Sequence record: PP400777
From: Escherichia phage JM10
Length of the DNA: 64,000 bases
Reading direction: 5' to 3' (one strand)
The position numbers and the translations under genes are program-made. How positions within the stretch are numbered: position 1 is the stretch's first letter; every line of letters begins with the position of its first letter. Shown here piece after piece: positions 7,048 through 39,458 of the stretch. The notes beneath the pieces were generated by a model that did no database searches, was not told the DNA's origin, and saw only the letters and a list, made by a program, of their open reading frames with translations.

Positions 7048-7075
7048 ATTATTTTCCTCGGTTATTTTATTATCC

Positions 7076-12993: not shown

Positions 12994-13121
12994 AATAATC
13001 TCTTCCCATTTCCATGTCAATTAATTCATTTATTGAAGGCTCATCATAACATGTTTCTTCGTCGTTGTAAACTGTTTCGACGTCTGGCTCGACAGTCTCC
13101 CATCGAGCCGAATACCACGGT

Positions 13122-14123: not shown

Positions 14124-14428
14124 TATAATGTTCTCTCAAATTTGTGGAAGCATTTACGACATTTCAATTTCAAGTTATCAGTGGTCCAGTTAACCAGTTG
14201 GACTTGGATAGTTCCACATTCCGGACATGGGTGTTTTGCTGCCGATTTGGCAGCATTTTCACGTCGTTCAACCATTTTCATTATTTCGTCCCATGCCGGA
14301 GGAACGAACTCTTCTTCACCGTGGATTTTATTTCTCTGAACAAATTCAATCTTTGAACTATCGTCAATAAACTTAACCAAGCGGTGACTAGTGTTCATAT
14401 CAATATCCTCTAAAAGACGTAGGTTCAT
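14123..14428 (-). CDS. zinc-ribbon protein
   Basis: 101 aa; CPECG…CRKC motif. Confidence 0.5.
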   Translation of the reverse strand: MNLRLLEDIDMNTSHRLVKFIDDSSKIEFVQRNKIHGEEEFVPPAWDEIMKMVERRENAAKSAAKHPCPECGTIQVQLVNWTTDNLKLKCRKCFHKFERTL

Positions 14429-15378: not shown

Positions 15379-15435
15379 AATATTTTCCTCTCGTTAAGAT
15401 AGAAAGATTATACTCCAACCATCCTTGGTTGTACA

Positions 15436-16431
15436 TCATTCCTTAAGAAGTTTTACTACCTGAATAAGATTAGCTCGTTCTGTTTTATTTTTACCATTTA
15501 AGCCTGCTAATCGTGAGATTTCATAGTCAGTCTGTTGAATAGTTACATTAAGTTCGTTAATCAAAGCTTCAAAGTATTTGATTTGCTCAGCATGTTTTGA
15601 TTCAAATTTCTGAACCGGAATAACGTCTTGGTTCAGTTCATCAATAAGGTCTTTAAGAGCATCTTCTTGGTTGATATCATATTCAACTTCTTTTATTTCT
15701 TCAGCGAGCTCGTCTTTATATCTAACGTCTTTTAGTCCTGGTGCTGGTCCTGAAATCTCTTCTTTAAGAGTACAAACATATCCAATACGGTATCCAATGC
15801 CGTCTCGCTTGATATCAACTTCGTCGATAAATCCACAATGTTTAAGACCGGAGCCGATTAGGTCAAAATATCCTTGACGTCGTCCTTCAAACGTTACACG
15901 AACTACTAAAACGGTTTTACCTGCAACCTTTTGAAGCTCGCATTTATAAAAGTCTGTTGAACCTGAATAACGCGGATGAGTTTTAAAGTTCATCTGACGA
16001 TCTAGACCCATTTGTAAGCGTGCTGATACAGCCAGAAAACGTGTTTGGTTCTCGTTAAGATGAGCAACAATCCATTTCAAAGGCATTTTACCCTGTTCAC
16101 GACCGAACAAATCAGTACGTCCTAAATTACGCAGGATATTGTTAGAGTTAATCATCGACAGAATGTTAAGTTTATTCAGCGCGCTGAAGATTCCATCGGC
16201 CATTGATTTTCCGTAACCTTTACACGCTTTAATAAGTGCTCGCGGTAGATTAGTATAGATTTCAGGCGGCATATGAAAATCAAATTTACTAACCAGTAAT
16301 TGATGAACTTGGATAGCAATTTGTTCATAATTAAGTGCTCTGCGATCGTTATGGTCTTTAAACCACACTTTAATCTGTGAAGCACATAAACCGTTAATTT
16401 CATGTTTTACCGCATCAGATGTAATGCTCAT
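15436..16431 (-). CDS. hypothetical protein (nrdC.x region)
   Basis: 331-aa ORF; GAGGAA RBS. Confidence 0.6.
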   Translation of the reverse strand: MSITSDAVKHEINGLCASQIKVWFKDHNDRRALNYEQIAIQVHQLLVSKFDFHMPPEIYTNLPRALIKACKGYGKSMADGIFSALNKLNILSMINSNNILRNLGRTDLFGREQGKMPLKWIVAHLNENQTRFLAVSARLQMGLDRQMNFKTHPRYSGSTDFYKCELQKVAGKTVLVVRVTFEGRRQGYFDLIGSGLKHCGFIDEVDIKRDGIGYRIGYVCTLKEEISGPAPGLKDVRYKDELAEEIKEVEYDINQEDALKDLIDELNQDVIPVQKFESKHAEQIKYFEALINELNVTIQQTDYEISRLAGLNGKNKTERANLIQVVKLLKE

Positions 16432-16496: not shown

Positions 16497-17021
16497 TGCG
16501 TGAACCGTCTTTAAACGTTCTTCAAATTTCCGAAGAGTACTAATACGTTCTGCTTTCTGTTTTGTATAGTTTGCAATACGTTCTGAAGTGAGAGCGTATC
16601 GTTCGTTTACTGTTTCTTTCATGAAGTCAGGGATTTCACGAGAAGCTTTAATTTCATCAAACTTATCGAGTACTGCCTGGTCTTCAGCGATTAAATTTTC
16701 GTACATCTCGATATCTTTCTTGATAAACTCGATATCTTCCTGGGTTACTTTGGATAAATGAGATGCTTTATCCTTTTTGTACTGCTCGTTAGTTTCACGA
16801 GACCAGAATAATGTACGTTTTTTGTTAGTGTTTTTGTAGACTTCCACAATTCCAACCGAATCGATGATAACAATCCAATTCCAGCGAGATTTGAAAATCT
16901 GACCTCCGTCCACGGTAATCTCGTTACCATAAGCAACGTCATTAAAGAACTTGCTTTGTGCTTCAGATTTAAATTTACCGTCGTTATAATTTACCAGGTT
17001 GAAAATATCTTTAGCGTTCAT
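16494..17021 (-). CDS. hypothetical protein
   Basis: 175 aa; GGAGGT RBS. Confidence 0.55.
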   Translation of the reverse strand: MNAKDIFNLVNYNDGKFKSEAQSKFFNDVAYGNEITVDGGQIFKSRWNWIVIIDSVGIVEVYKNTNKKRTLFWSRETNEQYKKDKASHLSKVTQEDIEFIKKDIEMYENLIAEDQAVLDKFDEIKASREIPDFMKETVNERYALTSERIANYTKQKAERISTLRKFEERLKTVHA

Positions 17022-17037
17022 GTTTTACCTCCAGTAG

Positions 17038-17077
17038 TTGATAGGTCTATAATAACATAACCGTAGACCTTGTAAAC
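17038..17077 (-). promoter_or_regulatory. PeSL-like early promoter + stem-loop cassette
   Basis: Minus strand GTTTAC-17-TATTAT with inverted repeat AGGTCTA/TAGACCT, then GGAGG RBS. Confidence 0.45.
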
Positions 17078-17505: not shown

Positions 17506-18507
17506 TTATTTCAGTAAAGTTACTTCAGAGATTTCCTCCCAACCATCTTTATCAGTTGAAATAAAATCTGCTACATAAAGAGCCGTACGTAATGATACAT
17601 TGCGAAGACGAGATACGTTAGCCTTCATCCAGGACAATGCTTTATACGTTTCTGCATCCGTCAGACCACGTTTCTGCATCATGTCAGTAGATAATATTAC
17701 ATCTTCAACTCGAACCATAATCTCTTCATTAGAGTGTACTCCAAGGTCCAAATACACTGAACGAGATACTAAAGCTTGAAGGTGTGGAGCAAGTTTAGAA
17801 CCGCGTTCTAACTCTTTATCGATATCAACGTTTGTAATGAAAACGATAGTACCTTCAAACTCAAATTCTTTATCAATACCCTTATCATCGAGATAAGATG
17901 ACGCAGTGCTCCAACAAACTTTGCGTTTATCTCCGGTATCTAATGCTGCTTTAAGAAGGTTCAAGATGTCCATATCTGAGAATACGTCAACGTCGTCGAT
18001 TAAGAGAACGCTGTCTGCATCACGGTTGAGCCAAAGTTGTTCGTAAAGGCCGATACCAGAGATTTTACCATTAATGCTTTTGTATTTGATGAAACCATTA
18101 TCATTAGCATTATTAAGCGCTTTATCCAGAGAATACGTCTTACCAATACCGGCTGCACCTGAAATAATGAGTGAACGAATTTTGCCATCAATAATGCCAT
18201 TCGTCATCATGTTCATTACTTTAAAGCGTTTGTTGATACGAGTTTTCATATCTTCAGTGCTTTCAACAACTGCAACCGGTGACGTCTCAACTCCTTCCAT
18301 TACGATGTCTGATTTGAAGACCCATACTCCACGTTCAGAACCATCAATCATAACGAAAATTTTACCATCACCTAAGTGGGAACATTCAGGATTAAGCTTT
18401 GCCGGGAACCAGGTCTTTGTGGCGACATAAGAACCAGAGATTTCGTTATTACGGTAGATACCTTTTTTGATTTGAACGTTGAACATTTTATTCTCCAATT
18501 TACTCAT
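17506..18507 (-). CDS. P-loop NTPase (AAA-like ATPase)
   Basis: 333 aa; Walker A GAAGIGKT and Walker B LLIDDVD. Confidence 0.65.
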   Translation of the reverse strand: MSKLENKMFNVQIKKGIYRNNEISGSYVATKTWFPAKLNPECSHLGDGKIFVMIDGSERGVWVFKSDIVMEGVETSPVAVVESTEDMKTRINKRFKVMNMMTNGIIDGKIRSLIISGAAGIGKTYSLDKALNNANDNGFIKYKSINGKISGIGLYEQLWLNRDADSVLLIDDVDVFSDMDILNLLKAALDTGDKRKVCWSTASSYLDDKGIDKEFEFEGTIVFITNVDIDKELERGSKLAPHLQALVSRSVYLDLGVHSNEEIMVRVEDVILSTDMMQKRGLTDAETYKALSWMKANVSRLRNVSLRTALYVADFISTDKDGWEEISEVTLLK

Positions 18508-18515
18508 TTCGTTTC

Positions 18516-18554
18516 GATAGGTCTATAATAACATGTTTAAAGCAAAAGTAAACA
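18516..18554 (-). promoter_or_regulatory. PeSL-like early promoter cassette
   Basis: Minus strand GTTTAC-17-TATTAT-AGACCTATC, upstream of the ATPase gene. Confidence 0.4.
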
Positions 18555-18555: not shown

Positions 18556-18774
18556 TTATTTGCGACGAGATTTTTTGGTAAGAGGTTGAAAGAACACTGC
18601 TTTACCGGCTGGGGTTAAGGTGACTCGTAACGCATTACCGATTCCTAAGGATGCTTTAACTAGACCTTTAGCTTTCAGTTCACCGAATGCTTGACGTTGG
18701 TCTGCATCACGAGTGTTAACCATAAGACCTTTATCACCAGTTTCACGAATCATTTCTAACATTTTGGTTTTCAT
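18556..18774 (-). CDS. hypothetical small protein
   Basis: 72 aa from the internal ATG with a strong GAGGAG RBS. Confidence 0.5.
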   Translation of the reverse strand: MKTKMLEMIRETGDKGLMVNTRDADQRQAFGELKAKGLVKASLGIGNALRVTLTPAGKAVFFQPLTKKSRRK

Positions 18775-18791
18775 TTTGTTCTCCTCTTGTT

Positions 18792-18830
18792 TTGATAGGT
18801 CTATAATAACATATCCTAAAAGCATGTACA
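18792..18830 (-). promoter_or_regulatory. PeSL-like early promoter cassette
   Basis: Minus strand TGTACA-17-TATTAT-AGACCTATCAA. Confidence 0.4.
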
Positions 18831-18849
18831 CTACTTTTTAAAAATATTT

Positions 18850-21296: not shown

Positions 21297-21406
21297 CATT
21301 TTACCATACTCGCTTCAATAAGATTCATTACACCATTTACCATGTTATACGTAAACATCGGATAATTGTATTGTATCACAACGTATACGATAAGCAAAAG
21401 TTTCAT
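21297..21406 (-). CDS. candidate small hydrophobic peptide (36 aa)
   Basis: Not in the ORF track; GGAG RBS 6 nt upstream of ATG and a PeSL-like promoter upstream; MKLLLIVYVV…. Confidence 0.3.
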
Positions 21407-21423
21407 TTTGTTCTCCATTTGTT

Positions 21424-21466
21424 TTGGTAGGACTACTATAACATAGTCCTACCAAGTTGTAAACTA
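21424..21466 (-). promoter_or_regulatory. PeSL-like early promoter + stem-loop cassette
   Basis: Minus strand GTTTAC-17-TTATAGT with 10-bp inverted repeat GGTAGGACTA/TAGTCCTACC. Confidence 0.45.
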
Positions 21467-21677: not shown

Positions 21678-21857
21678 TCACATAATCTCGTTAACATACA
21701 TTTGCAATTCGGTGTGGGCGTCAGCCATCTTTTTCATAGCTCTGTTAATGTCGATGTCTCCATCTTCGCAACCATGAGCATTTTCCCAATCAGATACCGC
21801 ATTAGCGTACTCTTCAATCAAAAACATTAACTTAGAAATTTTTTCTTTACGTGACAT
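21678..21857 (-). CDS. hypothetical small protein
   Basis: 59 aa from MSRKEK…; GAGGAGA RBS; promoter cassette immediately upstream. Confidence 0.4.
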   Translation of the reverse strand: MSRKEKISKLMFLIEEYANAVSDWENAHGCEDGDIDINRAMKKMADAHTELQMYVNEIM

Positions 21858-21861
21858 AACG

Positions 21862-21914
21862 TTCTCCTCTAGTAAGTAAGGTTTACTATAACACAACCTG
21901 AGGAGAAGTAAACT
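21862..21914 (-). promoter_or_regulatory. PeSL-like early promoter; RBS is complementary to the -35/-10 spacer
   Basis: Minus strand GTTTAC-TTCTCCTCaggttgtgt-TATAGT…GAGGAGAA. Confidence 0.45.
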
Positions 21915-21924
21915 GATAGATGCC

Positions 21925-21951
21925 AAAAAGCCCCAACCTTTCGGAAGGGGC
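21925..21951 (-). terminator. rho-independent terminator
   Basis: Minus strand GCCCCTTCCGAAAGGTTGGGGC followed by TTTTT; downstream of rI; identical hairpin at 36551-36572. Confidence 0.6.
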
Positions 21952-21958
21952 TAGTAAA

Positions 21959-24635: not shown

Positions 24636-25094
24636 CTAGATTTTAATCACTGCTTTAGAAGCTTTTCCTGGTAGTCGTTTATTGTTAATAATAGCCATTC
24701 TGCATTGAAGAGACTTCATTTTGAATGCTGGATTTTCGCGACAAACTGTAAGTCCTAACCAAAGATTTCCATCAGTTATTTCTAAACGGCCTGGGCGATA
24801 TTCGACACCTTCGACAAAATCTTCATCAACATCTGGACGTGCCGGCATTGATAAAAATTCTGCAACTTCTTTAACATGATTTTTTACTTTATGAAATAAT
24901 TCAAAAACGTAATTCTCATCTATTTCTCTCTGGATGGCACGATCTAAGAGATGTTGAGAATACTTGATATGAAAGCCTGGTAGTCCAAGAGACTTTGCAG
25001 CATCTTTTATACTGGCATTTATTTTGCGGAACTCCGTTTCAAAGATTCGACGGAGTTTATTACGGCGGATAAAAACGTCTGAATTGATAGTCAT
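24636..25094 (-). CDS. regB: endoribonuclease RegB-like
   Basis: 152 aa; position and size match T4 regB and the sequence resembles my recollection of it. Confidence 0.7.
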   Translation of the reverse strand: MTINSDVFIRRNKLRRIFETEFRKINASIKDAAKSLGLPGFHIKYSQHLLDRAIQREIDENYVFELFHKVKNHVKEVAEFLSMPARPDVDEDFVEGVEYRPGRLEITDGNLWLGLTVCRENPAFKMKSLQCRMAIINNKRLPGKASKAVIKI

Positions 25095-25100
25095 TTTGAT

Positions 25101-25153
25101 TTCTCCTCTAGTTGACAGGTCTATAGTAACACAACTAGAGGAGAAGTAAACTA
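25101..25153 (-). promoter_or_regulatory. PeSL-like early promoter with 13-bp inverted repeat pairing the spacer to the RBS
   Basis: Minus strand GTTTAC-tTCTCCTCTAGTTGtgt-TACTAT-agacctgt-CAACTAGAGGAGAaatcaaaATG. Confidence 0.5.
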
Positions 25154-27064: not shown

Positions 27065-27130
27065 TTAGTTTCTCTTTTAGGTTGGGCCATTCCGTGGCGC
27101 ATGAATTGTCCATTTCTGTATTTACCCCTC

Positions 27131-27176
27131 CAAGTAATTATGAATATACTATCACAATTCTAGGAGAAAGTAAACT
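27131..27176 (-). promoter_or_regulatory. PeSL-like early promoter cassette
   Basis: Minus strand GTTTAC-17-TAGTAT…cttggagg. Confidence 0.4.
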
Positions 27177-27177: not shown

Positions 27178-27480
27178 TTATTTACCTTTAATTACTTTAG
27201 CTGCTTCGATAGCCGCTTGCTGAAGGTCATCCATAGACATACCGAATTTAGAAGCAAAGTTATCAATTTTCTTTTCGACAGCATTCAAAGGCTTTGCCTG
27301 TTTACCTTCATTAGCGCCAGGAAGAGCGAGAATACGCTCTTTGTCAATATAAAGGCTTACAAGTTTCTTACGGTCTTTATCGGACAAATCATGAAATGAA
27401 TGGGCCTTTTTATTTATAGCGGCTTCTAATTTACCTGCACTCACTCGCGCTTCAGTAATAAATTCTTGATAGGTTTTCAT
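27178..27480 (-). CDS. ipII: prohead internal protein II-like (capsid targeting sequence)
   Basis: 100 aa starting MKTYQEFITEA; colinear with my recollection of T4 IPII. Confidence 0.7.
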   Translation of the reverse strand: MKTYQEFITEARVSAGKLEAAINKKAHSFHDLSDKDRKKLVSLYIDKERILALPGANEGKQAKPLNAVEKKIDNFASKFGMSMDDLQQAAIEAAKVIKGK

Positions 27481-27507
27481 GTGTTTCCTTGTTTGTTTTG
27501 ATAGAGT

Positions 27508-27538
27508 AATTATACCATATTAATACTTAAGCGTAAAC
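27508..27538 (-). promoter_or_regulatory. early promoter candidate (GTTTAC -35, TATAAT -10)
   Basis: Minus strand GTTTAC-17 nt-GTATAAT, then AGGAAA RBS and the ipII ATG. Confidence 0.5.
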
Positions 27539-27804: not shown

Positions 27805-27917
27805 TTTTCCTTAGTAAATTGATTTACCAAAGTATTTGTACCAAGTCGGGCGTTGAGCAATTTTTTATCTAAGCGTGCTTGACTTATCGCAATGGACGCT
27901 TCGGACGGGTCATAATT

Positions 27918-27970
27918 TCCTCCAAGTAGTTGATGAATGTATAGTATCAAAACCCTTGGAGGAAGTAAAC
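27918..27970 (-). promoter_or_regulatory. PeSL-like early promoter with 9-bp inverted repeat flanking -10
   Basis: Minus strand GTTTAC-tTCCTCCAAGggttttg-ATACTAT-…CTTGGAGGAaatt ATG. Confidence 0.45.
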
Positions 27971-30632: not shown

Positions 30633-30938
30633 TTATTTTCCTCGGCATTCTTTAATGAAATTTTCTAGATTGGTAGATTCAATAGCTTTTTTACGAGCTT
30701 CTGCGTGTTCTTCTTCGGACAATTTACATTTATAATTGACCCAGACATTATGGTCAAAACTAGTCGTGGCATATAATAACAAAGCTCCGACGAATAATAA
30801 AAACGGTGATAAGAATACAAAACCAGGAACACCATCCATACTGTAAGCCTTTTGTAATACTGCAACAGAAAGAGCTACGTAAAAAGGTGTTGCAAATATT
30901 GTAAAAAGACCGATTCGATTGGTTTCGCCTAATTTCAT
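30633..30938 (-). CDS. small membrane protein ending ENFIKECRGK
   Basis: 101 aa with two hydrophobic helices; GAGGAGAA RBS. Confidence 0.55.
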   Translation of the reverse strand: MKLGETNRIGLFTIFATPFYVALSVAVLQKAYSMDGVPGFVFLSPFLLFVGALLLYATTSFDHNVWVNYKCKLSEEEHAEARKKAIESTNLENFIKECRGK

Positions 30939-30957
30939 AATATTCTCCTCATGTTTT

Positions 30958-30996
30958 AATAGGACTACTATAACATAGTCCTATAATTGTGTAAAC
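30958..30996 (-). promoter_or_regulatory. PeSL-like early promoter + stem-loop cassette
   Basis: Minus strand GTTTAC-17-TTATAGT with inverted repeat TAGGACTA/TAGTCCTA. Confidence 0.45.
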
Positions 30997-31008
30997 AGTT
31001 TTGCGAAA

Positions 31009-31965
31009 TTATTTGAAAGGTTTTACAATATTGAAATTTTGTTTGAAACGTTTGACGTAATCATCATGTCCTAAGCTTTGGTACATACTTACTACTTTGC
31101 TGTAGTTTTCCCAGGCATACTCACGGAACCAACCGGAGGTTATGCTTGTACAGACTTTTTCCAATGCCATCATGAAACTGGCTTCAGGGTTAATTTTAAA
31201 GTCATTAGGAATCTGAGAACGTTCTAATGCTAGTACACATGATTCTTCATATACACCGGCCAATTTGACCATTTCTGGTAACGATTCGAACTTCTCGCGT
31301 GAGGTCATTACTTCAGAACCATCTTTCATGTAAAATGTATAAGCCGGACGGTCTGTTAGTGCAATGGCTTCGTGAATAGTATCGTGGTCATATGTATAGA
31401 TGTCATCTTTAAAGAACGCACTTTTAGAAGTGTCAAGAACCGGGTGAGCATAGTTCAAGGTTTCTTTCTGGCGTTTCAGCATAATTTCGGTAAGTTCATC
31501 GTTCAGTGTAACACCTTTACCACGAAGATACTGAATATGGTTCATAGTCTTTAAAAAGAATGGATTATTTTTCTTGAAACGATGAGACATCTTAATTGCA
31601 AGACATATCTCAGGAGTTGCCCAGTAAAACCCGTTCAAACGGTCTTTAGTCAAATTTTTCTTGGCGTATTTTAAAAGGTCATAAGAAGACGTGAAATCTT
31701 CAGGAGTGAGTTCACCGACTAATTCACGGACATTAGTGATTGCCGGAACAATATATGCTTCAAAATGAGTTTCGCGTCCATTATGGAAGCATTTGAAAAC
31801 TTGGACATCAGGGTTATCTTGGTGAACATATACACCCATCATTTGATTTTTGAATGCATTCCAAGAACATTGGTCCGCAATAAAGTCCCAATCACTATTT
31901 TTAATAGCGCTAGAATCAATAAGACCGTGATAGTGAAGTGCACGAGAACCAATAACCAACATCAT
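31009..31965 (-). CDS. hypothetical protein (weak nucleotidyltransferase-like N-terminus)
   Basis: 318 aa; N-terminal IGSRALHYHG…NSDWDF weakly resembles a GS…DxD motif. Confidence 0.55.
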   Translation of the reverse strand: MMLVIGSRALHYHGLIDSSAIKNSDWDFIADQCSWNAFKNQMMGVYVHQDNPDVQVFKCFHNGRETHFEAYIVPAITNVRELVGELTPEDFTSSYDLLKYAKKNLTKDRLNGFYWATPEICLAIKMSHRFKKNNPFFLKTMNHIQYLRGKGVTLNDELTEIMLKRQKETLNYAHPVLDTSKSAFFKDDIYTYDHDTIHEAIALTDRPAYTFYMKDGSEVMTSREKFESLPEMVKLAGVYEESCVLALERSQIPNDFKINPEASFMMALEKVCTSITSGWFREYAWENYSKVVSMYQSLGHDDYVKRFKQNFNIVKPFK

Positions 31966-32033
31966 AATATTTTCCTCGGATTAATTCATTAACTTAAATT
32001 TCACGACATGCGATATCATATTCATCCCAGAGG

Positions 32034-32246
32034 TCATCGTGTGAAGCCTCTACCAATGGAACGATTGTACCCGTTTATGTCTTCATTATAAGGGCAAATT
32101 GTACAGTGCGCATCTTCGAATCGGATGCCTTTATGTTCAGATTTTTTATAACGCATATCGAATATCTTTGCAAACTTTTCACGAGTAATGGTTTTAGCAA
32201 CCACTTTGGTTCCGATACTTTCGTAATAAATCATTGTGGACTCCAT
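32034..32246 (-). CDS. hypothetical small protein
   Basis: 70-aa ORF with CTIC motif. Confidence 0.4.
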   Translation of the reverse strand: MESTMIYYESIGTKVVAKTITREKFAKIFDMRYKKSEHKGIRFEDAHCTICPYNEDINGYNRSIGRGFTR

Positions 32247-32251
32247 TTAAT

Positions 32252-32293
32252 TTGATAGAACTACTATAACATAGCCCTATCTTGTTGTAAACT
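32252..32293 (-). promoter_or_regulatory. PeSL-like early promoter + stem-loop cassette
   Basis: Minus strand GTTTAC-17-TTATAGTAGTTCTATCAA. Confidence 0.45.
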
Positions 32294-32296
32294 GTT

Positions 32297-32494
32297 TTAG
32301 CAAGAATAACTAGATGATACCCAGCCTTGAACAGTAATACTATTATTTGATAACGAGATTGCGTCCTGGAGATTCAGACCTGCGTTATCTTCAATCCATA
32401 ATATAACTTCTTCGCGTTCTTCTGTTGCAATTTGGAACAGGTTTTCCAGAGCAGCTACTGCCGTACGTACAGCGCAATCTAATTCACGAGACAT
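32297..32494 (-). CDS. small protein, W-V-S-S-S-x-x-C C-terminal family (member 3)
   Basis: 65 aa ending QGWVSSSYSC. Confidence 0.45.
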   Translation of the reverse strand: MSRELDCAVRTAVAALENLFQIATEEREEVILWIEDNAGLNLQDAISLSNNSITVQGWVSSSYSC

Positions 32495-32503
32495 ATGATT
32501 TCC

Positions 32504-32776
32504 TTAACAAGTGTGAGAAGACGCGACCCAACCACCAGTTTCGAGGCTAAGGTTGTAGTCGTATTGGTAAACGTCAGCCCATTCAGCATAGCCGTTTTTT
32601 GTACAACGTTCAAGATCGGCTTTAAGATGTCCGGGTGAATGATAGGTTCCACCCATACCATAAGCTGGGTACAAGTCGAATGTTGTGTTTTGTTTATCAG
32701 CAATTTCTTTGGCAGCCTCAATAGCTGCATAGATTTTTGCTACAGCTTCAGCCAGTTCGGTTTGTTCTTTAGACAT
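32504..32776 (-). CDS. small protein, W-V-S-S-S-x-x-C C-terminal family (member 2)
   Basis: 90 aa ending GGWVASSHTC; AAGGAA RBS. Confidence 0.5.
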   Translation of the reverse strand: MSKEQTELAEAVAKIYAAIEAAKEIADKQNTTFDLYPAYGMGGTYHSPGHLKADLERCTKNGYAEWADVYQYDYNLSLETGGWVASSHTC

Positions 32777-32785
32777 AATGATTCC

Positions 32786-33091
32786 TTAGCACAACGCAGA
32801 AGACGAAACCCAAGCACCTTCAGTAATAACGTAACCATTACCTTCACGCTTAACATCGCCACCATTATTTTCAATTTCATTTTTCATCCACTGGGATACG
32901 ATTTCACCCTTAGGATAATAAGTACGACCGCTACCATAATCACCTACAGAAAATGATACGGCATATTGGTCTGCGATCTTTGTTGCTTCTTCTTCGATAC
33001 GTTCAGCTTGATTCAGAAGTTTATAAATTGCATCTGAAGCGGATTTGGCATCATTAAACTCTGGTACTTTAATTTCAATAATCTTACTCAT
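32786..33091 (-). CDS. small protein, W-V-S-S-S-x-x-C C-terminal family (member 1)
   Basis: 101 aa ending GAWVSSSALC; its ATG overlaps the upstream stop. Confidence 0.5.
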   Translation of the reverse strand: MSKIIEIKVPEFNDAKSASDAIYKLLNQAERIEEEATKIADQYAVSFSVGDYGSGRTYYPKGEIVSQWMKNEIENNGGDVKREGNGYVITEGAWVSSSALC

Positions 33092-33447
33092 TTTCTACAT
33101 TCCTTAATAAAGTTTTCGATTGTTTCATTTTCACGTCTAGCTAGGAGTTCATTATAACTAATCATTTGAGAAGCGTAAACCTTTTTATTTTTCTTGTTAT
33201 GGTTTATAAAATCGTAGTAAAAATAGACTACAGTACAAAATGATGCGATGGATGCAAAGGCTTGGGTATACCGTAAGTCCTGCCATTGGTCTGTGAATCC
33301 ACCAGTGTTCCCTATAAATCCTAACACAACGCCGTCAATAAGAAATCCAACTAATCCAAAGGCAAATCCCATGCCAATACTCATAATAAAAATTAGAATG
33401 TTCTCACCAAGAGAAGGCCATACGGTTAAGAGTTGAGGCTTTTGCAT
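33088..33447 (-). CDS. membrane protein ending ENFIKECRK
   Basis: 119 aa with two or three hydrophobic helices. Confidence 0.5.
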   Translation of the reverse strand: MQKPQLLTVWPSLGENILIFIMSIGMGFAFGLVGFLIDGVVLGFIGNTGGFTDQWQDLRYTQAFASIASFCTVVYFYYDFINHNKKNKKVYASQMISYNELLARRENETIENFIKECRK

Positions 33448-33821
33448 CTTATTTCCTTAACGAATTCCATAGCTTCTTCATATTCATACTTTTTAACAGC
33501 TTCATCATACTGAGCTTGGGCTTTTGCGCACTGAACTTTCCATTCTCTTAATCGGGCTCTGTGATGACGACCTTGGTGCCAATATCCTACCCAATTAATA
33601 GGCATTAATAAAAATGGTACAATAAACGACCCGGCTATAATAAGTAAAAACACTGCATCAGACGATATAACTTCACTAGAATCTAAAACAGCTCCTATAA
33701 TCATAAAGATTAAAAATGCTAAAGCTAAAATAGGGCCAAATAGTACTTCATTTGGAATTAATTTACGCTTGTATTCATACGCCAAGGGTTTAATTGGCAT
33801 GTACAGGGTTGGCTTTGACAT
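33426..33821 (-). CDS. membrane protein
   Basis: Start uncertain (ATG at 33821 or 33800); the ORF-track start is TTG inside the upstream gene. Confidence 0.4.
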   Translation of the reverse strand: MSKPTLYMPIKPLAYEYKRKLIPNEVLFGPILALAFLIFMIIGAVLDSSEVISSDAVFLLIIAGSFIVPFLLMPINWVGYWHQGRHHRARLREWKVQCAKAQAQYDEAVKKYEYEEAMEFVKEIRCKSLNS

Positions 33822-34386
33822 ATTCTCTACATTCCATAATAAATTGCTCAAGGATTAAATTGTTAGTGAAATTAGGACTAACAACCATGGTTTCATAAAG
33901 CGCATCAATAGCACTTAAAGCATCAACTCTTTTAAGCAAAGGCTTGCCTTCATACATAGTTTCAGAATCGATGATTAACGTAAAGTAATATTTTTTATTA
34001 TCGACTAGAACTTCTGTATCGATATAAAACATATTAGACCTCAGAAGCTTATCTCTAAAACCATAATAATCTTCAGAGCGTTCGCTGATATATTCCAATT
34101 CAGTGTTTAAACAACAAACAGACCATGTAGGAGCAACGAAATCAGTGAATCTAATATCATGGTCTGCAACTAGTTTAGCAATAGCTCCGATATCATGAAT
34201 CATAATACCTGGGGCTAATAAAGATTTTCGGTGATTTGCATATTCAGTTGTCTCATAAGAAGACGACCAGTACCATTTACGTCCAGTTGCAACATATCGT
34301 AATGAATCAACTAAAGACGTAGGTGGATTTACCTTATCTCGGAACTCTTCGAACATTGAGTCAATATCATTATTTTGGTTTCGCAT
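33790..34386 (-). CDS. hypothetical protein ending …FIMECREYVKANPVHAN
   Basis: 198 aa from the ATG with a strong AAAGGAG RBS. Confidence 0.55.
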   Translation of the reverse strand: MRNQNNDIDSMFEEFRDKVNPPTSLVDSLRYVATGRKWYWSSSYETTEYANHRKSLLAPGIMIHDIGAIAKLVADHDIRFTDFVAPTWSVCCLNTELEYISERSEDYYGFRDKLLRSNMFYIDTEVLVDNKKYYFTLIIDSETMYEGKPLLKRVDALSAIDALYETMVVSPNFTNNLILEQFIMECREYVKANPVHAN

Positions 34387-34435
34387 GTTAACTCCTTTAT
34401 TATCCAAAAGGAGGACCGGAGTCCTCCGTATTATT

Positions 34436-35029
34436 TTATTTCAAAGAGTTAATATATTCTTGTACATCAGCAGAAGTGGTTTCTACACCAGCTGGAGTGC
34501 CATTGAACGTTTCAACACGAGTCAGAGTGTCTTCGATATCAACCTTAGTCAGTGCAGCGATTTCAATTACATCATCAGCCGTAGAGATACCAAGGGCATT
34601 GGCTGCTCGAGTTTCACGAATGTATTCGAGTTTGATTGCCAGGTTCTGACGAGCATCGTCAAGTTCAACCACCTTACGAGCAATTTCAATTCGCATAGCG
34701 GCATACCCATCAGCTTTTGTATTAAGTTGTTCGGCAGTTCTACGATACAGAAGACCAAGCTTAGCATGCATGGTAACATCTTGTCCTTCAGCCAGGAGCT
34801 TACGAATTTCACGTTCCTTAGAAGCGGCTTGCTTGTTCTTTTCATTAACAAGTTCGCGAATACGTTTTTCTTCATTAATAGATTTAACAGAAGCCGTTTT
34901 TAGTTCTTTGATTTGGGTAATCAACTTATCTGCAGCTGCGTTATACTGTTCTTCGACAGTCAGATTTTTAGCCATAGCAGTACCAAGTTTAGTGCGGATG
35001 AATTCGACAAGTTTCTTCAGTGTGTTCAT
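34436..35029 (-). CDS. coiled-coil protein
   Basis: 197 aa from the ATG with AAAGGT RBS; heptad-rich; shares its promoter/5'UTR with the gene at 6715..7047. Confidence 0.55.
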
Positions 35030-35061
35030 ATTATTACCTTTCAATTGGTGGTTTATTATCC

Positions 35062-35100
35062 AACGAGAGCATTATACTCTGCTCTCAAGAGTTTGTAAAT
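35062..35100 (-). promoter_or_regulatory. early promoter candidate, duplicate of 7076-7114
   Basis: 45 bp with 1 mismatch to 7065-7110: TTTACA-17-TATAAT with inverted repeat GAGAGCA/TGCTCTC. Confidence 0.5.
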
Positions 35101-35327
35101 TATTTTTTAATCAAATTGACATAAAACTTGGCGTCTTCGGGGTGCATGCCTTCGCAGTATTCTTCAACCATGAACTTCTTAACAGCTTCATAAGGACCAC
35201 TCAGATTAAGCTCAGTTGTCCAGAACTTGGAATCTTGGACTGAATCGATACGAACTTCAGGGTGTCGGTTGCGAATAACTTCTTCGGTGTATTCATAATC
35301 AACGACATCAATACTAACTTTAGCCAT
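35100..35327 (-). CDS. hypothetical acidic protein
   Basis: 75-aa ORF. Confidence 0.5.
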   Translation of the reverse strand: MAKVSIDVVDYEYTEEVIRNRHPEVRIDSVQDSKFWTTELNLSGPYEAVKKFMVEEYCEGMHPEDAKFYVNLIKK

Positions 35328-35342
35328 TTTGTGTTCCTCGTA

Positions 35343-35388
35343 TTTTGATAGGACTACTATAACATAAACTTACTTAGATGTAAATTAT
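35343..35388 (-). promoter_or_regulatory. PeSL-like early promoter + stem-loop cassette
   Basis: Minus strand ATTTAC-17-TTATAGTAGTCCTATCAA. Confidence 0.4.
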
Positions 35389-35538
35389 TTCAACGTCACC
35401 TTTAGCTGCTTTATAACCTTCGGCCCAAGATACAACAGAGTTTTTATCTGAGGATTCAAATTCAGGCATTGGACTTTCACCAATATTCACACAGTATGTT
35501 TCTTCATTTTCATCGAACCAAATAATTAAAGTAGTCAT
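35374..35538 (-). CDS. candidate small protein (54 aa)
   Basis: Not in the ORF track (under 60 aa); AGGAG RBS; PeSL-like promoter upstream. Confidence 0.35.
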   Translation of the reverse strand: MTTLIIWFDENEETYCVNIGESPMPEFESSDKNSVVSWAEGYKAAKGDVEIIYI

Positions 35539-35557
35539 TTTGTTTACTCCTCTGTAG

Positions 35558-35600
35558 TTGATAAGTCTATAGTATCACCGTCCTTGGTGCTTGTACATCA
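35558..35600 (-). promoter_or_regulatory. PeSL-like early promoter cassette
   Basis: Minus strand aatgatgTACAAg-…-TACTATAGACTTATCAA. Confidence 0.4.
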
Positions 35601-35606
35601 TTATTT

Positions 35607-35912
35607 TTAATTTTTCCAACTTAACAACTTGTAGTGTCCTTCATTCATACGTGGTTTATCCCAAGAAATACTAATATATGATTCACCGTCAATAGAAGTC
35701 GCCGGGTTTTTCTCTACCGTAAGACCTTCACTTTCCAGCCATTCGATAGTATTTGCGCATAAATCAGAAGAACACCTCATCGGGAACCGGCAAGATTTTT
35801 CACCTTTAGCTGCAGTGTTATACATCTTTTCTAAAATACGCTTTTGCACGTTTTTAAAAATAGTTTCAGCAGATTCTTCAGATTTTTTATTCAGTTCAGT
35901 GTAAAGACTCAT
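35607..35912 (-). CDS. hypothetical protein
   Basis: 101 aa; CRFPMRCSSDLC cysteine cluster. Confidence 0.5.
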   Translation of the reverse strand: MSLYTELNKKSEESAETIFKNVQKRILEKMYNTAAKGEKSCRFPMRCSSDLCANTIEWLESEGLTVEKNPATSIDGESYISISWDKPRMNEGHYKLLSWKN

Positions 35913-35929
35913 AATATTTTCCTCTGTGG

Positions 35930-35969
35930 TTGATAAGTCTATAATATCATGTCCTTAGAAGAAGTAAAC
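35930..35969 (-). promoter_or_regulatory. PeSL-like early promoter cassette
   Basis: Minus strand GTTTAC-17-ATATTATAGACTTATCAA. Confidence 0.4.
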
Positions 35970-36002
35970 AACTTTATGAAATATTTTTATGCCCTAGATA
36001 CC

Positions 36003-36029
36003 AAAAAGCCCCAACCATAAGGAAGGGGC
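36003..36029 (-). terminator. rho-independent terminator
   Basis: Minus strand GCCCCTTCCTTATGGTTGGGGC followed by TTTTT. Confidence 0.55.
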
Positions 36030-36035
36030 ATTCTA

Positions 36036-36500
36036 TTATTTAATTTGTTTAGCAGACCAGATACGGTCTTTAATAAGTTTTTGGATATCTTCAACATACT
36101 CAAGGCTATGAGCGTGAGGATTATCTTTGAAGCTATGTGCTCGTGCCAGTTTCTGGCCTTCTGTTTTGATTACTAAAAGCTCTTTAAGAATTGCTTCATA
36201 CTTAGAAATAATTCCTTTGGCGATATTTTTTTCTTGAGCTGCTTTAGGGTCTGCTTTTGGCGCAGGTGCTTTACCTGTAGCTTTCTGGAACAATTCACCT
36301 GATGCAGCTAGGCTTTTAAAAACTCGGCTAACAGTATTAGCATTAGTAAAACCTTCGGCTTTAAAATCTCTAATAAAACGGAAACGTTCTTCATCAGAGG
36401 CGTCTTTGTAAGAATATTTACCTGCTTGAATTGCTGCAATCGCAGCGGCTTTTACATCTGAACTAGATTGTTCAGTCAAAAATTCAGCGTATGATTTCAT
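36036..36500 (-). CDS. internal protein-like (CTS-bearing), 154 aa
   Basis: Starts MKSYAEFLTEQ (CTS-like); AGGAAAAG RBS; an AATAAATAG late-promoter-like element lies upstream. Confidence 0.55.
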   Translation of the reverse strand: MKSYAEFLTEQSSSDVKAAAIAAIQAGKYSYKDASDEERFRFIRDFKAEGFTNANTVSRVFKSLAASGELFQKATGKAPAPKADPKAAQEKNIAKGIISKYEAILKELLVIKTEGQKLARAHSFKDNPHAHSLEYVEDIQKLIKDRIWSAKQIK

Positions 36501-36545
36501 GTTGCTTTTCCTAAGTTAATTAACTTATCTATTTATTATTATGCC

Positions 36546-36572
36546 AAAAAGCCCCAACCTTTCGGAAGGGGC
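36546..36572 (-). terminator. rho-independent terminator downstream of the tRNA/stable-RNA cluster
   Basis: Same hairpin as 21930-21951, followed by TTTTT on the minus strand. Confidence 0.6.
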
Positions 36573-36614
36573 TATATACCTTGTCGGGGTTCCACCTGCT
36601 AAGGCAAGTGTTTG

Positions 36615-36707
36615 TACGAAACGCCGGGATTCGAACCCGGTTATTAAGCAGTTGACGCTACTCAATATTTTTAAAAGGCCATATCTCGACCATATCCGAA
36701 CGTTCCG
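36615..36707 (-). ncRNA. tRNA-like element / candidate stable RNA
   Basis: Canonical T-arm CCGGG-TTCGAAT-CCCGG and 7-bp acceptor pairing (CGGAACG/CGTTTCG), but 93 nt long and no clean D or anticodon arm could be folded by eye. Confidence 0.3.
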
Positions 36708-36880
36708 TCAAAAACGCTACTCGGCTTACGGCAAAGATATTTCCTCGAATCGATAATTCGGTGCGCCGTTTCTGCTGTGATGTAAGGGGATATTAACAAA
36801 TCATAAAGATTTATTAAGACCAGTCCTTACTCAGGGAACATCAGTCCGACGACTTACCGGTAGCGACCCGGCTTCTTATT

Positions 36881-36957
36881 TGGTCGAGGCAGAAGGATTC
36901 TAACCTTCAACCTACGGATTAGAAATCCGTTGCTCTATACAATTGAGCTATGCCTCG
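36881..36957 (-). tRNA. tRNA-Arg (anticodon UCU)
   Basis: Cloverleaf read by eye: acceptor CGAGGCA/TGCCTCG, D stem GCTC/GAGC, anticodon loop TTTCTAA, T arm GAAGG-TTAGAAT-CCTTC, CCA encoded. Confidence 0.8.
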
Positions 36958-36963
36958 AATATA

Positions 36964-37037
36964 TGACCCAGACCAGATTCGAACTGGTAACCTTTCCCTT
37001 ATGAGGGGACTGCTGCTAACCATTGAGCTACAGGGCC
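36964..37037 (-). tRNA. tRNA-Ile2/Met-like (anticodon CAU)
   Basis: Acceptor GGCCCTG/CTGGGTC, anticodon loop CTCATAA, T arm ACCAG-TTCGAAT-CTGGT; the D stem is imperfect as read. Confidence 0.6.
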
Positions 37038-37158
37038 TAAATAACTTTCTATTATGAAAGGCACTTTAGAGTACCTTTGGTAATAGAGGGTATGAATTAA
37101 TAATAACACATAATTCTTAAAGCAAATCAATCATTTTAACAGTTGGCAAAACGATTTC

Positions 37159-37443
37159 TCACCATATTTTGTATGTGTTCTGAATGCAATCAAGTCCTAA
37201 AGGATTCTTGAAAATATCATATTCAAGAGGGCCTTTTTCTGTTTCAATAAAGAAATCAAAGTTCACTGTATTAAATTTACGGTCTTCCCATAGTAATTTG
37301 ACCTGTGAAGACGAACGGTCGATATAAACCTTTTCAACCTCAAAGTTAGTCAGAATACCGTAGTCATTAACTAGTGCTTTAGCTGCACGTTGATCGCTTT
37401 CGTATCCATTCTCAACGGATTTTACCTTAGCGTAAAGAATCAT
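37159..37443 (-). CDS. hypothetical protein
   Basis: 94-aa ORF. Confidence 0.5.
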   Translation of the reverse strand: MILYAKVKSVENGYESDQRAAKALVNDYGILTNFEVEKVYIDRSSSQVKLLWEDRKFNTVNFDFFIETEKGPLEYDIFKNPLGLDCIQNTYKIW

Positions 37444-37802
37444 GAATGTTCCACCATTTCAAAGGTATGAGCATCAACAATATGATACCAGTCAAAATTT
37501 TCTTCTGCGTTTTTATAAATTTCGCGAAGAGCCTCAACAGTTTTTCCTGTAGCAACAAGGTCGTCAATACCGCCAAGAGGATAACAGTCATAACCAGCAA
37601 ACAGAAGGAAATTAATAGTTTCTGTAGGTTCTGGATGCAGAACACCGTTATCGTCTACCACTTCAAAGAAAGTGTAAGAAGGAGTACAAGTTTTAATCCA
37701 AGCCCATGCTTGAGCCGCTGAATCAAATGGTCTGCGTATCAAACGACAATCAGGGTCTTTAGAAGGATTTGCTTCAAAATCCGCATATACGTGATATTTC
37801 AT
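37440..37802 (-). CDS. hypothetical protein
   Basis: 120 aa from MKYHVYADFE…; GGTGA RBS. Confidence 0.5.
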   Translation of the reverse strand: MKYHVYADFEANPSKDPDCRLIRRPFDSAAQAWAWIKTCTPSYTFFEVVDDNGVLHPEPTETINFLLFAGYDCYPLGGIDDLVATGKTVEALREIYKNAEENFDWYHIVDAHTFEMVEHS

Positions 37803-37803
37803 T

Positions 37804-38010
37804 TTACTCACCTTTTGCAATTTTATCCATAACGATAGCGATTAAGCCGATTAGAAATGCTACTACCAACGAGATAGAGTTTTCAGTTGTTGTCAGTAGT
37901 CCACAAATGAATCCTACAAACATCGAAAAACTAAAAGCCATTGAAGCAATTACTACAGCAACATTACGAATCAGTTCAGCGCGTTTCATTTTATTTCTCC
38001 ATTTACTCAT
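37804..38010 (-). CDS. small membrane protein
   Basis: 68 aa with two hydrophobic helices. Confidence 0.45.
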   Translation of the reverse strand: MSKWRNKMKRAELIRNVAVVIASMAFSFSMFVGFICGLLTTTENSISLVVAFLIGLIAIVMDKIAKGE

Positions 38011-38015
38011 TTGTT

Positions 38016-38058
38016 TTGATAGGACTACTATAACATAGCCCTATAGGCTTGTATACCT
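38016..38058 (-). promoter_or_regulatory. PeSL-like early promoter + stem-loop cassette
   Basis: Minus strand GTATAC-…-TTATAGTAGTCCTATCAA. Confidence 0.4.
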
Positions 38059-38322
38059 TTATTTCAAATATATTGCGTATTTTTTATAGCCACCAGGCTC
38101 GTGTCGAAGACCTTTATCATTCGCAAAACGTTGAATGTTATTGAACTGATTTTCATCAAGTTCGGATGTGTCAAATATGAAAAAGTTTCGTTTGTTACCA
38201 AGCGTGATATGCGGAGTTAAGTCAATGTTATACAAATTAAGAATATCAGCAATAACCTGATTGACCGCTTTGTTAATTTTCACACCAGACGATTCTGAGA
38301 TGAATTCGTTGAAAGTTTTCAT
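38059..38322 (-). CDS. internal protein-like (CTS-bearing)
   Basis: CTS-like MKTFNEFISES begins at the fifth codon of the ORF-track ORF; no clear SD at either ATG. Confidence 0.5.
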   Translation of the reverse strand: MKTFNEFISESSGVKINKAVNQVIADILNLYNIDLTPHITLGNKRNFFIFDTSELDENQFNNIQRFANDKGLRHEPGGYKKYAIYLK

Positions 38323-38342
38323 TTTAGGTTCCATTTGGTTGT

Positions 38343-38386
38343 TTTGATAGGACTACTATAACATAGTCCTACCATGATGTAAACTA
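38343..38386 (-). promoter_or_regulatory. PeSL-like early promoter + stem-loop cassette
   Basis: Minus strand GTTTAC-17-TTATAGT with inverted repeat GGTAGGACTA/TAGTCCTACC; near-identical to the 21424-21466 copy. Confidence 0.45.
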
Positions 38387-38695
38387 TTTTATGCCTTTAG
38401 ATGAAATAGTATTCTGGCGTTTGACCCCAGTTTGTGAAAAATCATGGTTATCAATTTGGTCAACTCGCATAACACCAAATGCGGATTTAATTTTGGCTTT
38501 TGAACCTTTTTTGATACTAATTATCATATAAGTATCATTTTTCTTATATTCGAAATTTGTTACTTCAACGCCTTGATTAGAAATTGACTTAATAATAGCA
38601 TTAGCGTATTCATCATCTAACGGACCGGTGGTGTTAATAATAAAATTTTTATCGGCTTTAGTAGCTTCAGCGATAAACTCTTGATAGGTTTTCAT
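38384..38695 (-). CDS. internal protein I-like (CTS-bearing)
   Basis: 103 aa starting MKTYQEFIAEA; sits upstream of 57B as T4 ipI does. Confidence 0.6.
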   Translation of the reverse strand: MKTYQEFIAEATKADKNFIINTTGPLDDEYANAIIKSISNQGVEVTNFEYKKNDTYMIISIKKGSKAKIKSAFGVMRVDQIDNHDFSQTGVKRQNTISSKGIK

Positions 38696-38718
38696 TTTAT
38701 TTCCTTGAGGTTGTTTAT

Positions 38719-38760
38719 TTGATAGGATGATAGTAACACACCATCATCCTTATGTAAACT
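38719..38760 (-). promoter_or_regulatory. PeSL-like early promoter + stem-loop cassette
   Basis: Minus strand GTTTAC-17-TTACTAT with inverted repeat GGATGAT/ATCATCC, then AGGAAA RBS. Confidence 0.45.
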
Positions 38761-38772
38761 GTTTTGTGAAAA

Positions 38773-39458
<686 letters not shown>

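Follow-up and report, generated by a model that had tools for sequence, protein, structure and literature searches.

The DNA considered here is a stretch of 64,000 nucleotides (nt) from Escherichia phage JM10 (record PP400777), hereafter called the window, which derives from an RB69-like T-even phage (Mosigvirus) and has its best match, at about 97% identity, in phage pEB20. When placed by means of annotated relatives and RB69, the window corresponds to a known part of the T4-type map, in which 55.x, nrdC, mobD, tk, regB and denV are followed by e, e.x, the tRNAs and ipI, with 57B at the end. The early genes of this region all lie on the minus strand and the late baseplate genes, from about 42 kb onward, on the plus strand. 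Within positions 30958-38760, which belong to a 7.9-kb span having 96-97% identity to RB69-like Mosigvirus phages and matches in 811 phage records, about 19 protein genes are accompanied by nine copies of a short promoter cassette that recurs over the early part of the window. Many copies contain an inverted repeat close to the -10 element, and it is the relationship of these cassettes to the promoter early stem-loop elements of other T4-type phages, hereafter abbreviated as PeSLs, that we analyze in this work.

The first-pass annotation of the window had recognized the module on the minus strand at 16 pairs of coordinates, and at all 16 we find a -35-like hexamer, a spacer of 17-18 nt, a TG-extended TAnnnT, a Shine-Dalgarno (SD) motif and an ATG. 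GTTTAC, which had been proposed as the general -35 sequence, is present in 11 of these copies, the rest showing GTGTAC, GTATAC, ATTTAC or ATGTAC. The pattern GTTTAC-N15-19-TANNNT occurs 21 times in the window versus 5.65 ± 2.36 times in shuffled sequences, none of which reached 21, and 19 of the matches are minus-strand sites located in the interval 7.5-38.8 kb; similarly, TTTACW-N17-TAYWRT, namely the promoter pattern of T-even PeSLs with one position relaxed, is found 11 times versus 0.64 expected. A generic scan for sigma-70 promoters gave no enrichment (71 sites vs. 65.2 ± 8.5 in shuffles), and the enriched form is only the T4-specific one with GTTTAC. A search of the interval 30000-39500 with the Rfam 15 covariance models (E ≤ 0.1) returned only two tRNAs plus one sub-threshold chance match overlapping a tRNA.

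An nhmmer profile built from 21 aligned copies, used with a cut-off of E < 0.01, recovered all its input sequences together with two new ones (-35 at about 13072 and 15436), which confirms, for the promoter module, the original estimate of over 20 copies. All 23 matches are on the minus strand and confined to the stretch from 7 to 39 kb, the late-gene half of the window having none. When the same profile was run on the window and eight aligned Mosigvirus relatives (SA79RD, AV118, RPN187, RB69, pEB20, mogra, KAW3E185 and NHEP11), 168 matches were obtained and 168 of 168 lay on the early-transcribed strand, while the homologous 42 kb of T4 contains 14 matches, again all on the same strand. In RB69, 20 of 21 orthologous sites are among the early promoters that Nolan et al. 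2006 predicted (PMC1524935); the RefSeq record of T4 has no promoter features. The 22 nt preceding the -35 hexamer are modestly enriched in A+T (71%, with 42% A, vs. a background of 63% and 33%, respectively) and a motif ..TTTCACAAAAC.. recurs there, whereas on the other side an SD-like motif lies 5-12 nt before an ATG opening a reading frame in 19 of 21 copies; the two copies deviating from this scheme (-35 at 27970 and 27175) precede the truncated denV and a short reading frame. The suggestion that the module stands before almost every small gene was overstated, for of the roughly 75 gene junctions in the interval from 6 to 41 kb only 23 (~30%) have a cassette, and many small genes follow one another in tightly overlapping runs without any cassette.

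The cassettes are associated with gene gain, loss and replacement, as had been anticipated from their likeness to PeSLs. Comparison with the eight relatives, in which breakpoints were taken from chained collinear alignment blocks and events of at least 80 bp, indicates that the open reading frames (ORFs) flanked by cassettes are not invariant, since breakpoints occur at 17 of the 23 cassette junctions versus 16 of the 52 other junctions (odds ratio 6.4, Fisher p = 0.0009). Of the 51 unique breakpoints, 16 lie no more than 20 nt from a cassette, whereas 3.9 would be expected, and none of 5000 randomisations reached 16. Restricting the comparison to junctions with a spacer of at least 25 nt leaves breakpoints at 16 of 21 junctions with cassettes versus 7 of 19 without (p = 0.024).

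Four clean single-gene indels show crossovers inside the cassette itself. RB69 and five other relatives possess nrdC.5 between two cassettes that are identical over the 27 nt from -35 to -10 (TACAACCAAGGATGGTTGGAGTATAAT), whereas the window lacks nrdC.5 and retains one hybrid (15376..15440) of the two flanking cassettes, with the crossover within the 27-nt stretch. The other three indels, at 30993 (a 262-bp insertion of ORF plus cassette in two relatives), 35101 (a 291-bp ORF insertion in SA79RD) and 7109 (an ORF insertion of ~290 bp in relatives), each comprise about 260-300 bp with one ORF and one cassette, and cross over at the -35 hexamer. The cassette stretches 7066-7114 and 35052-35100, which lie 28 kb apart between unrelated flanks, are 98% identical over exactly 49 nt. 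(We considered that the same gene might have moved between the 7109 and 35101 loci, but rejected this because the inserted ORFs are unrelated, without blastp match, and share only the cassette.) More generally, exact runs of 15-36 nt are shared between cassettes, with runs of at least 15 nt in 22 of 253 pairs versus 0-5 in random controls. Replacements of gene bodies at both internal-protein loci are delimited by a cassette and by a 35-nt repeat encoding the leader of the protein: those with breakpoints at 27451, 38293 and 38673 switch just after this leader repeat (table 1), while on the promoter side the cassette 37987..38056 is a replacement breakpoint in three relatives and the cassette 38320..38384 lies at breakpoint 38389, also seen in three relatives.

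The share of the rearrangements attributable to cassettes is only about one third to one half. In the tk.3 region (23291-23295), a 410-bp insertion with two ORFs, present in six of the eight relatives, lies in a run of overlapping genes without cassette and shows ~5 nt of overlap at its junction; this is gene gain or loss by a non-cassette route. Another insertion of ~356 bp bearing an ORF is found in most relatives at 36880, between tRNA-Arg and the homologue of the T4 small stable RNA rnaD, which together with the homologue of rnaC adjoins that tRNA gene. A breakpoint at 27911 was initially a candidate for a cassette-mediated event and was rejected, because it corresponds to an internal deletion of denV between two short direct repeats, AATTATG.C.CGT, located at the start codon and further downstream. 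The deletion has removed 297 nt (window 27801-27970, junction 27905-27917), leaving a frame of nine codons, MTRPKRPLR*, and an out-of-frame C-terminal remnant, whereas full denV is kept in all seven relatives that cover the deletion site.

The second component of the cassettes is the inverted repeat. A fixed-register search with loops of up to 24 nt missed the class of anti-SD pairing described below, and therefore we used duplex folding, in which the spacer (end of -35 to start of -10) was folded against the sequence from the end of -10 to the ATG and compared with shuffles. Summed over 21 cassettes, the duplex energy amounts to -250.7 kcal/mol versus -138.0 ± 10.8 kcal/mol in shuffled sequences, and strand folding of seven representative copies gives z-scores from -2.9 to -5.3. 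Pairing is individually significant (p ≤ 0.04) in 13 of the 21 cassettes, whereas by family the shuffle test attains p ≤ 0.05 in only 5 of 13, cassette copies not being independent (single-linkage clustering of 101 unique cassettes places 61 of them in one family). The inverted repeat of 7-13 bp around the -10, which had been attributed to the module as a whole, is present with at least 7 bp in about 12 of the 16 copies originally listed, while six of the 21 tested copies have no repeat (-35 at 35598, 35385, 27538, 18831, 18553 and 14456). The stem-loop is frequent, not universal, occurring in about two thirds of the cassettes; those devoid of it would rank as simple early promoters or as 'degraded' PeSLs.

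Two layouts can be distinguished among the pairing copies. In one, the -10 occupies the loop, 8-14 nt long, of a hairpin whose arms pair over 7-13 bp; the stem is of the type TAGGACTA/TAGTCCTA at some six loci, two others have GAGAGCA/TGCTCTC, and AGGATGAT/ATCATCCT and AGGTCTA/TAGACCT are found at one each. In the other, an anti-SD sequence within the spacer (e.g., CTTCTCCTCTAGTTG) pairs over 7-15 bp with the downstream SD region (e.g., CAACTAGAGGAGAA). The recurrent pairing of spacer and SD noted in the first-pass annotation is real in six copies (-35 at 25151, 21913, 27970, 27175, 35969 and 8241).

A comparison with T4 suggests that the pairing itself, rather than any given sequence, has been conserved. 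In the homologous region of T4, pairing is significant (p ≤ 0.05) in 7-8 of the 14 profile matches, and six promoters that are orthologous between T4 and the window, namely those of denV, regB, nrdC.8, the gene at the ipI position, tRNA.4 and mobD.2, pair in both phages with arms of different sequence (for mobD.2, GTTGACAAGATTA/TAATCTTGTCAAC in T4 and TTGGTAGGACTA/TAGTCCTACCAA in the window phage). The native duplex is more stable than T4/window chimeras in 11 of 12 comparisons. Moreover, among 23 strongly paired cassettes the RNA of mRNA sense folds better than its antisense in 18 and worse in five, with a mean difference of -2.06 kcal/mol versus -0.15 ± 0.46 in a composition-matched null, where 0 of 200 shuffles reached -2.06. 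The non-Watson-Crick cells in the main stem family are 15 G-T and 2 A-C, a count that collapses to roughly six G-T versus two A-C events. Since pairing is maintained with different arms, is strand-asymmetric and shows an excess of G-T, these data argue for selection of the pairing as an RNA hairpin in the sense orientation, and not as a DNA palindrome or a protein operator; the same cassette position holds at least eight unrelated stems. The compensating changes between T4 and RB69-like phages and the bias of pairing toward sense RNA may be new observations, as may be the recurrent design of an anti-SD in the spacer of early promoters, even if older papers on T4 promoters may already describe them.

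Table 1. Cassettes and associated features of the window. Cassettes are all on the minus strand, so that the -35 lies at the higher coordinate; p, pairing versus shuffles; z, strand folding; E, profile match.
Position	Strand	Feature	Sequence characters	Values
7045..7114	minus	cassette	ATTTAC-N18-TATAAT; hairpin GAGAGCA/TGCTCTC around -10	p=0.003
8182..8241	minus	cassette	spacer TCCTC..ATAGATG pairs with downstream CATCTA..GAGGA including SD	p=0.000, z=-3.3
13008..13072	minus	weaker promoter-like copy	GTTTAC-N18-TATGAT; no inverted repeat	E=0.0016
14396..14456	minus	cassette	no significant inverted repeat	p=0.84
15376..15440	minus	cassette	-35 ATGTAC; small hairpin CAACCA/TGGTTG wholly inside spacer	E=0.0058
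17019..17077	minus	cassette (nrdC.8)	weak 7-bp repeat AGGTCTA/TAGACCT around -10	p=0.14
18484..18553	minus	cassette	no inverted repeat	p=0.86
18772..18831	minus	cassette	-35 GTGTAC; no significant inverted repeat	p=0.57
21404..21464	minus	cassette	12-13 bp hairpin TTGGTAGGACTA/TAGTCCTACCAA, -10 in 8-nt loop	p=0.000, z=-5.3
21855..21913	minus	cassette	spacer anti-SD CTTCTCCTC pairs with SD GAGGAGAA	p=0.013
25092..25151	minus	cassette (regB)	spacer CTTCTCCTCTAGTTG and SD region CAACTAGAGGAGAA, 14-15 bp pairing	p=0.000, z=-4.25
27109..27175	minus	cassette; internal-protein gene replacement breakpoint	spacer pairs with downstream sequence including SD	p=0.010
27478..27538	minus	cassette (internal-protein gene)	no inverted repeat	p=0.99
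27913..27970	minus	cassette (denV, truncated)	spacer TTCCTCCAAG pairs with SD region CTTGGAGGAA	p=0.000, z=-4.9
30936..30996	minus	cassette	hairpin TATAGGACTA/TAGTCCTAT(T)A around -10	p=0.007
32232..32292	minus	cassette	hairpin ATAGGGCTA/TAGTTCTAT, G-U pairs in sense RNA	p=0.003
35027..35100	minus	cassette	hairpin GAGAGCA/TGCTCTC	p=0.037, z=-2.9
35325..35385	minus	cassette	TAGTCCTA family, 5' arm decayed, no pairing left	p=0.81
35536..35598	minus	cassette	-35 ATGTAC; only weak 6-7 bp repeat	p=0.87
35910..35969	minus	cassette	spacer TTCTTCT pairs with AGAGGAA, the SD	p=0.030
37987..38056	minus	cassette (tRNA.4)	-35 GTATAC; hairpin ATAGGGCTA/TAGTCCTAT	p=0.007
38320..38384	minus	cassette (internal-protein gene)	hairpin TGGTAGGACTA/TAGTCCTA(T)CA	p=0.003, z=-4.5
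38693..38759	minus	cassette (gene at ipI position)	hairpin AGGATGAT/ATCATCCT around -10	z=-3.7
21920..21953	minus	terminator-type hairpin, directly upstream of 21913 promoter	GC-rich with T-run, GCCCC..GGGGCTTTTT
35998..36031	minus	terminator-type hairpin, just upstream of 35969 promoter	GC-rich with T-run; repeat copy	82%
36541-36574	minus	terminator-type hairpin	GC-rich with T-run; third repeat copy
27449-27483	minus	leader repeat, ~35 nt at 5' end of coding sequence	MKTYQEFIAEA or close variant
27773-27807	minus	leader repeat	as above
38291-38325	minus	leader repeat	as above
38664-38698	minus	leader repeat	as above
36615-36753	minus	rnaC homologue		98.6% over 139 nt
36760-36879	minus	rnaD homologue		86.8% over 121 nt

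The cassette hairpins differ from the terminator-type hairpins of the same region. They are AT-rich and their 3' arm is followed by TCAAAAC instead of a T-run; because no T-run follows them, they are not canonical intrinsic terminators by sequence rules. Separate GC-rich hairpins with a T-run are found in three copies (table 1), two of which (21920-21953 and 36541-36574) are 100% identical over 34 nt at a distance of 14.6 kb, so that terminators appear to be repeated as modules, as the promoters are. (The record of SA79RD, OL960576, lists WebGeSTer rho-independent terminators at 3051-3087, 3324-3362, 4618-4651, 11541-11574 and 11897-11933, which are the orthologous cassette hairpins, one of them overlapping a promoter annotated as early; the labelling is probably misleading.)

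The properties thus outlined can be compared with those of known systems. By definition, a PeSL comprises an AT-rich tract followed by an early promoter, a stem-loop for which five positions are allowed, and finally an SD with a start codon (PMC2839356, PMC4122927); the stem-loop is most commonly situated between -35 and -10 or overlaps the -10 (PMC2839356). The PeSLs of phages RB49 and phi1 are located in hyperplastic regions, bring about indels and give rise to minicircles (Arbiol et al. 2010; PMC2839356). The cassettes of the window present all the features of this definition that sequence can reveal: promoter, AT-rich tract, stem-loop (in about two thirds), SD with ATG, and location in hyperplastic regions adjacent to indels. 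They also share with the RB49/phi1 elements the order of AT-rich tract, -35, -10, stem-loop, SD and ATG, the commonest stem positions, crossovers inside the element and single ORFs enclosed between two elements. By contrast, the promoters of RB49/phi1 PeSLs are almost perfect sigma-70 ones (TTGACA), with GC-rich stems of the type GGGG..CCCC, whereas those of the window have GTTTAC and AT-rich stems without T-run; furthermore, promoter activity, terminator activity and minicircles have been established by experiment in RB49/phi1, while the window cassettes are known from sequence alone. The authors of the PeSL concept themselves call the T-even elements analogues, not homologues, of RB49 PeSLs (PMC2839356).

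A closer parallel is found in the T-even pair PST/T4, for which Comeau, Arbiol and Krisch 2014 described PeSLs with the promoter TTTACW-N17-TAYWAT and stems of the form AGNA-loop-TCNT, proposing that PeSLs exist in probably all T4-like phages (PMC4122927). These elements belong to the same phage subfamily as the window cassettes and have the same promoter consensus, which the window matches with relaxation to TAYWRT, as well as the same type of stem (AGGA..TCCT in the window), an SD plus ATG at the 3' end, and an association with hyperplastic regions, indels and gene exchanges between close relatives. The PST stem-loops differ in lying, according to a figure legend of that paper, just upstream of the promoter, whereas the arms in the window mostly straddle the -10 or pair spacer with SD. 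Neither of the two PeSL papers mentions RB69-like phages (PMC2839356, PMC4122927), and the cassettes are elements of the PeSL kind in a lineage where these had not been set out before. For RB69 itself, the list of Nolan et al. 2006 comprises 58 predicted early promoters, in a paper where stem-loops or inverted repeats have no occurrence and no link to rearrangements is made (PMC1524935). According to the summary given in PMC2839356, Repoila et al. 1994 saw sequences of this kind at the internal-protein loci of T-even phages; in the part of that work so summarized, as on the ipI and denV sides of the window, the exchanged gene bodies are bounded by a T4 early promoter bearing an AT-rich stem-loop on one side and by the conserved leader sequence on the other; beyond these loci, window cassettes are also found in the regions of nrdC, mobD, regB, e and 55.x.

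On these grounds we consider, with a probability of roughly 0.8, that the T4-type early-promoter cassettes are the T-even version of PeSL elements. Each cassette is a compact intergenic module built of an A-rich UP-like tract, the -35 GTTTAC, a spacer of 17-18 nt, a TG-extended -10, the conserved sequence ..CTATCAA.., which would be the first part transcribed, an SD and an ATG, and the genes behind it are early and mostly accessory. To judge from the consensus and from published work on T4 and RB69, the host sigma-70 RNA polymerase would start about 7 nt after the -10 just after infection, the predicted start being 6-8 nt after the -10, at the A of ..CCTATCAA.., in accordance with the numbering of T4/RB69 early promoters that places the -10 at -12 to -7 (PMC1524935). 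As dispersed direct repeats, the cassettes serve as crossover points for the homologous recombination of the phage, as the comparison of relatives shows, with single genes or gene bodies being deleted, inserted or replaced between them; for internal-protein genes, the conserved leader-coding repeat provides the second crossover point.

The predicted start site has consequences for the function of the hairpin. With transcription beginning at the predicted site, some 7 nt beyond the -10, the 5' arm and, in the copies with a bracketed -10, most of the 3' arm would remain outside the transcript of the cassette's own promoter; and since the 5' arm lies upstream of the start, the hairpin would form only in read-through RNA coming from an upstream promoter. 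In the six anti-SD cassettes such read-through RNA would hide the SD, so that translation of the gene would depend mainly on RNA from its own promoter, whereas in the other cassettes the hairpin would form the tail of the message coming from upstream, most likely attenuating read-through or protecting the 3' end of that message. A precedent exists in the T4 genes e, soc, 49 and I-TevI, in which the SD is masked by RNA structure and translatable RNA comes solely from the proximal promoter (PMC3014915). There, too, the gene-proximal promoter starts inside the hairpin and only long read-through transcripts fold the SD away, a geometry we find in six window cassettes and in at least three T4 early promoters (denV, regB and nrdC.8). 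In the T4 cases, however, the internal promoter is late (or middle) and the hairpin delays expression, whereas in the window it is early, and the effect would consequently be insulation between neighbouring early units, not timing. We tentatively raise the possibility that the inverted repeats form a hitherto undescribed, genome-wide insulation device of T-even phages, by which cassette genes are folded shut in upstream RNA, with either their SD masked or the upstream message capped by a hairpin, and are open only in RNA from their own promoter; this is a weaker proposition than the equivalence with PeSLs. We found no description of such insulation of early promoters in the literature examined, even if older papers on T4 promoters may hold one.

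The simplest alternative regards the cassettes as ordinary T4-type early promoters that are maintained independently, with a long consensus explaining their likeness and both the repeats and the link to indels arising as by-products. Indeed, the UP tract, GTTTAC, the TG-extended -10 and the C-rich positions -3 to -1 match the published T4/RB69 consensus (PMC1524935, PMC2988021), and two of our results that fit this alternative belong to a series weighing against the equivalence with PeSLs. The six of 21 copies without inverted repeat imply that the hairpin is dispensable for promoter function, and about half of the junctions with breakpoints (16 of 33) have no cassette. In addition, the clean indels at 23293, 36880, 37159, 8660 and 6413 are not flanked by cassettes (several of the cassette-free indels lie in runs of overlapping genes or in the tRNA region); the association with rearrangements may be partly indirect, accessory genes being both variable and separately promoted for independent reasons; cassette copies are often paralogues, whereby per-copy counts overstate independent events, and the wobble excess shrinks as stated above; the promoter role is argued from the consensus and the orthologous sites of T4 and RB69; and the hairpins lack a T-run, which leaves the 'terminator' half of the PeSL definition putative for these cassettes. 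Yet copies share more than a consensus, as seen in the 49 nt of near identity between unrelated flanks and in exact runs of 24-36 nt that include non-consensus spacer, crossovers map inside cassettes, and pairing that persists with different arms in T4 orthologues and is biased to sense RNA is unlike a by-product. Independent maintenance of ordinary promoters thus appears quite unlikely to us.

It is also conceivable that the stem-loops are rho-independent terminators ending the upstream transcript, each cassette then being a terminator-promoter pair. This would agree with the WebGeSTer annotations on orthologous hairpins in SA79RD, with the reduced expression of a downstream reporter caused by an RB49/phi1 PeSL stem-loop (PMC2839356), with selection of pairing in a sense RNA that only read-through transcripts contain, and with the distinct terminator-type hairpins standing just upstream of the cassettes at 21913 and 35969. 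Nevertheless, none of the hairpins bracketing the -10 is among the 24 sites retrieved by a scan for terminator-like structures, a negative result that also counts against the equivalence with PeSLs and that led us to reject the hairpins as terminators despite the SA79RD labels; their AT-rich stems preceding TCAAAAC accord with this, the PeSL authors themselves call T-even stem-loops weaker and AT-rich (PMC2839356), and the anti-SD class is better explained by translational masking. We therefore judge the terminator interpretation improbable, though less so than that of ordinary promoters. Signals acting at the DNA level, such as operators for a repressor, or cruciforms that open the -10 or attract a recombinase, have in their favour the overlap of the repeats with the -10, a natural place for repression, the description of T4 early-promoter shut-off as not completely understood (PMC3014915) and the speculation by Arbiol et al. 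on a protein binding the stem-loop (PMC2839356). The diversity of arm sequences in one and the same position is at odds with a common recognition sequence, arm positions vary and loops range from 8 to 23 nt, while strand-asymmetric pairing, with G-U tolerated only in sense RNA, is unexpected for a DNA palindrome or cruciform; a DNA-level role consequently seems very improbable.

As T-even PeSLs, the cassettes extend the PeSL picture to RB69-like phages, which are widely isolated for phage therapy, and mark the seams along which accessory genes are exchanged, including those of injected internal proteins that counter host defences. Such seams tell annotators where gene content will vary, and some of the 'terminators' labelled in records overlap promoters. 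If the insulation proposed here were true, a module of promoter and gene would be expressed alike wherever recombination drops it, which could explain why these modules shuffle so freely. The evidence for selection of pairing in read-through RNA, in T4 as well, offers a simple and testable idea on how the densely packed early genes of these phages keep their independence.

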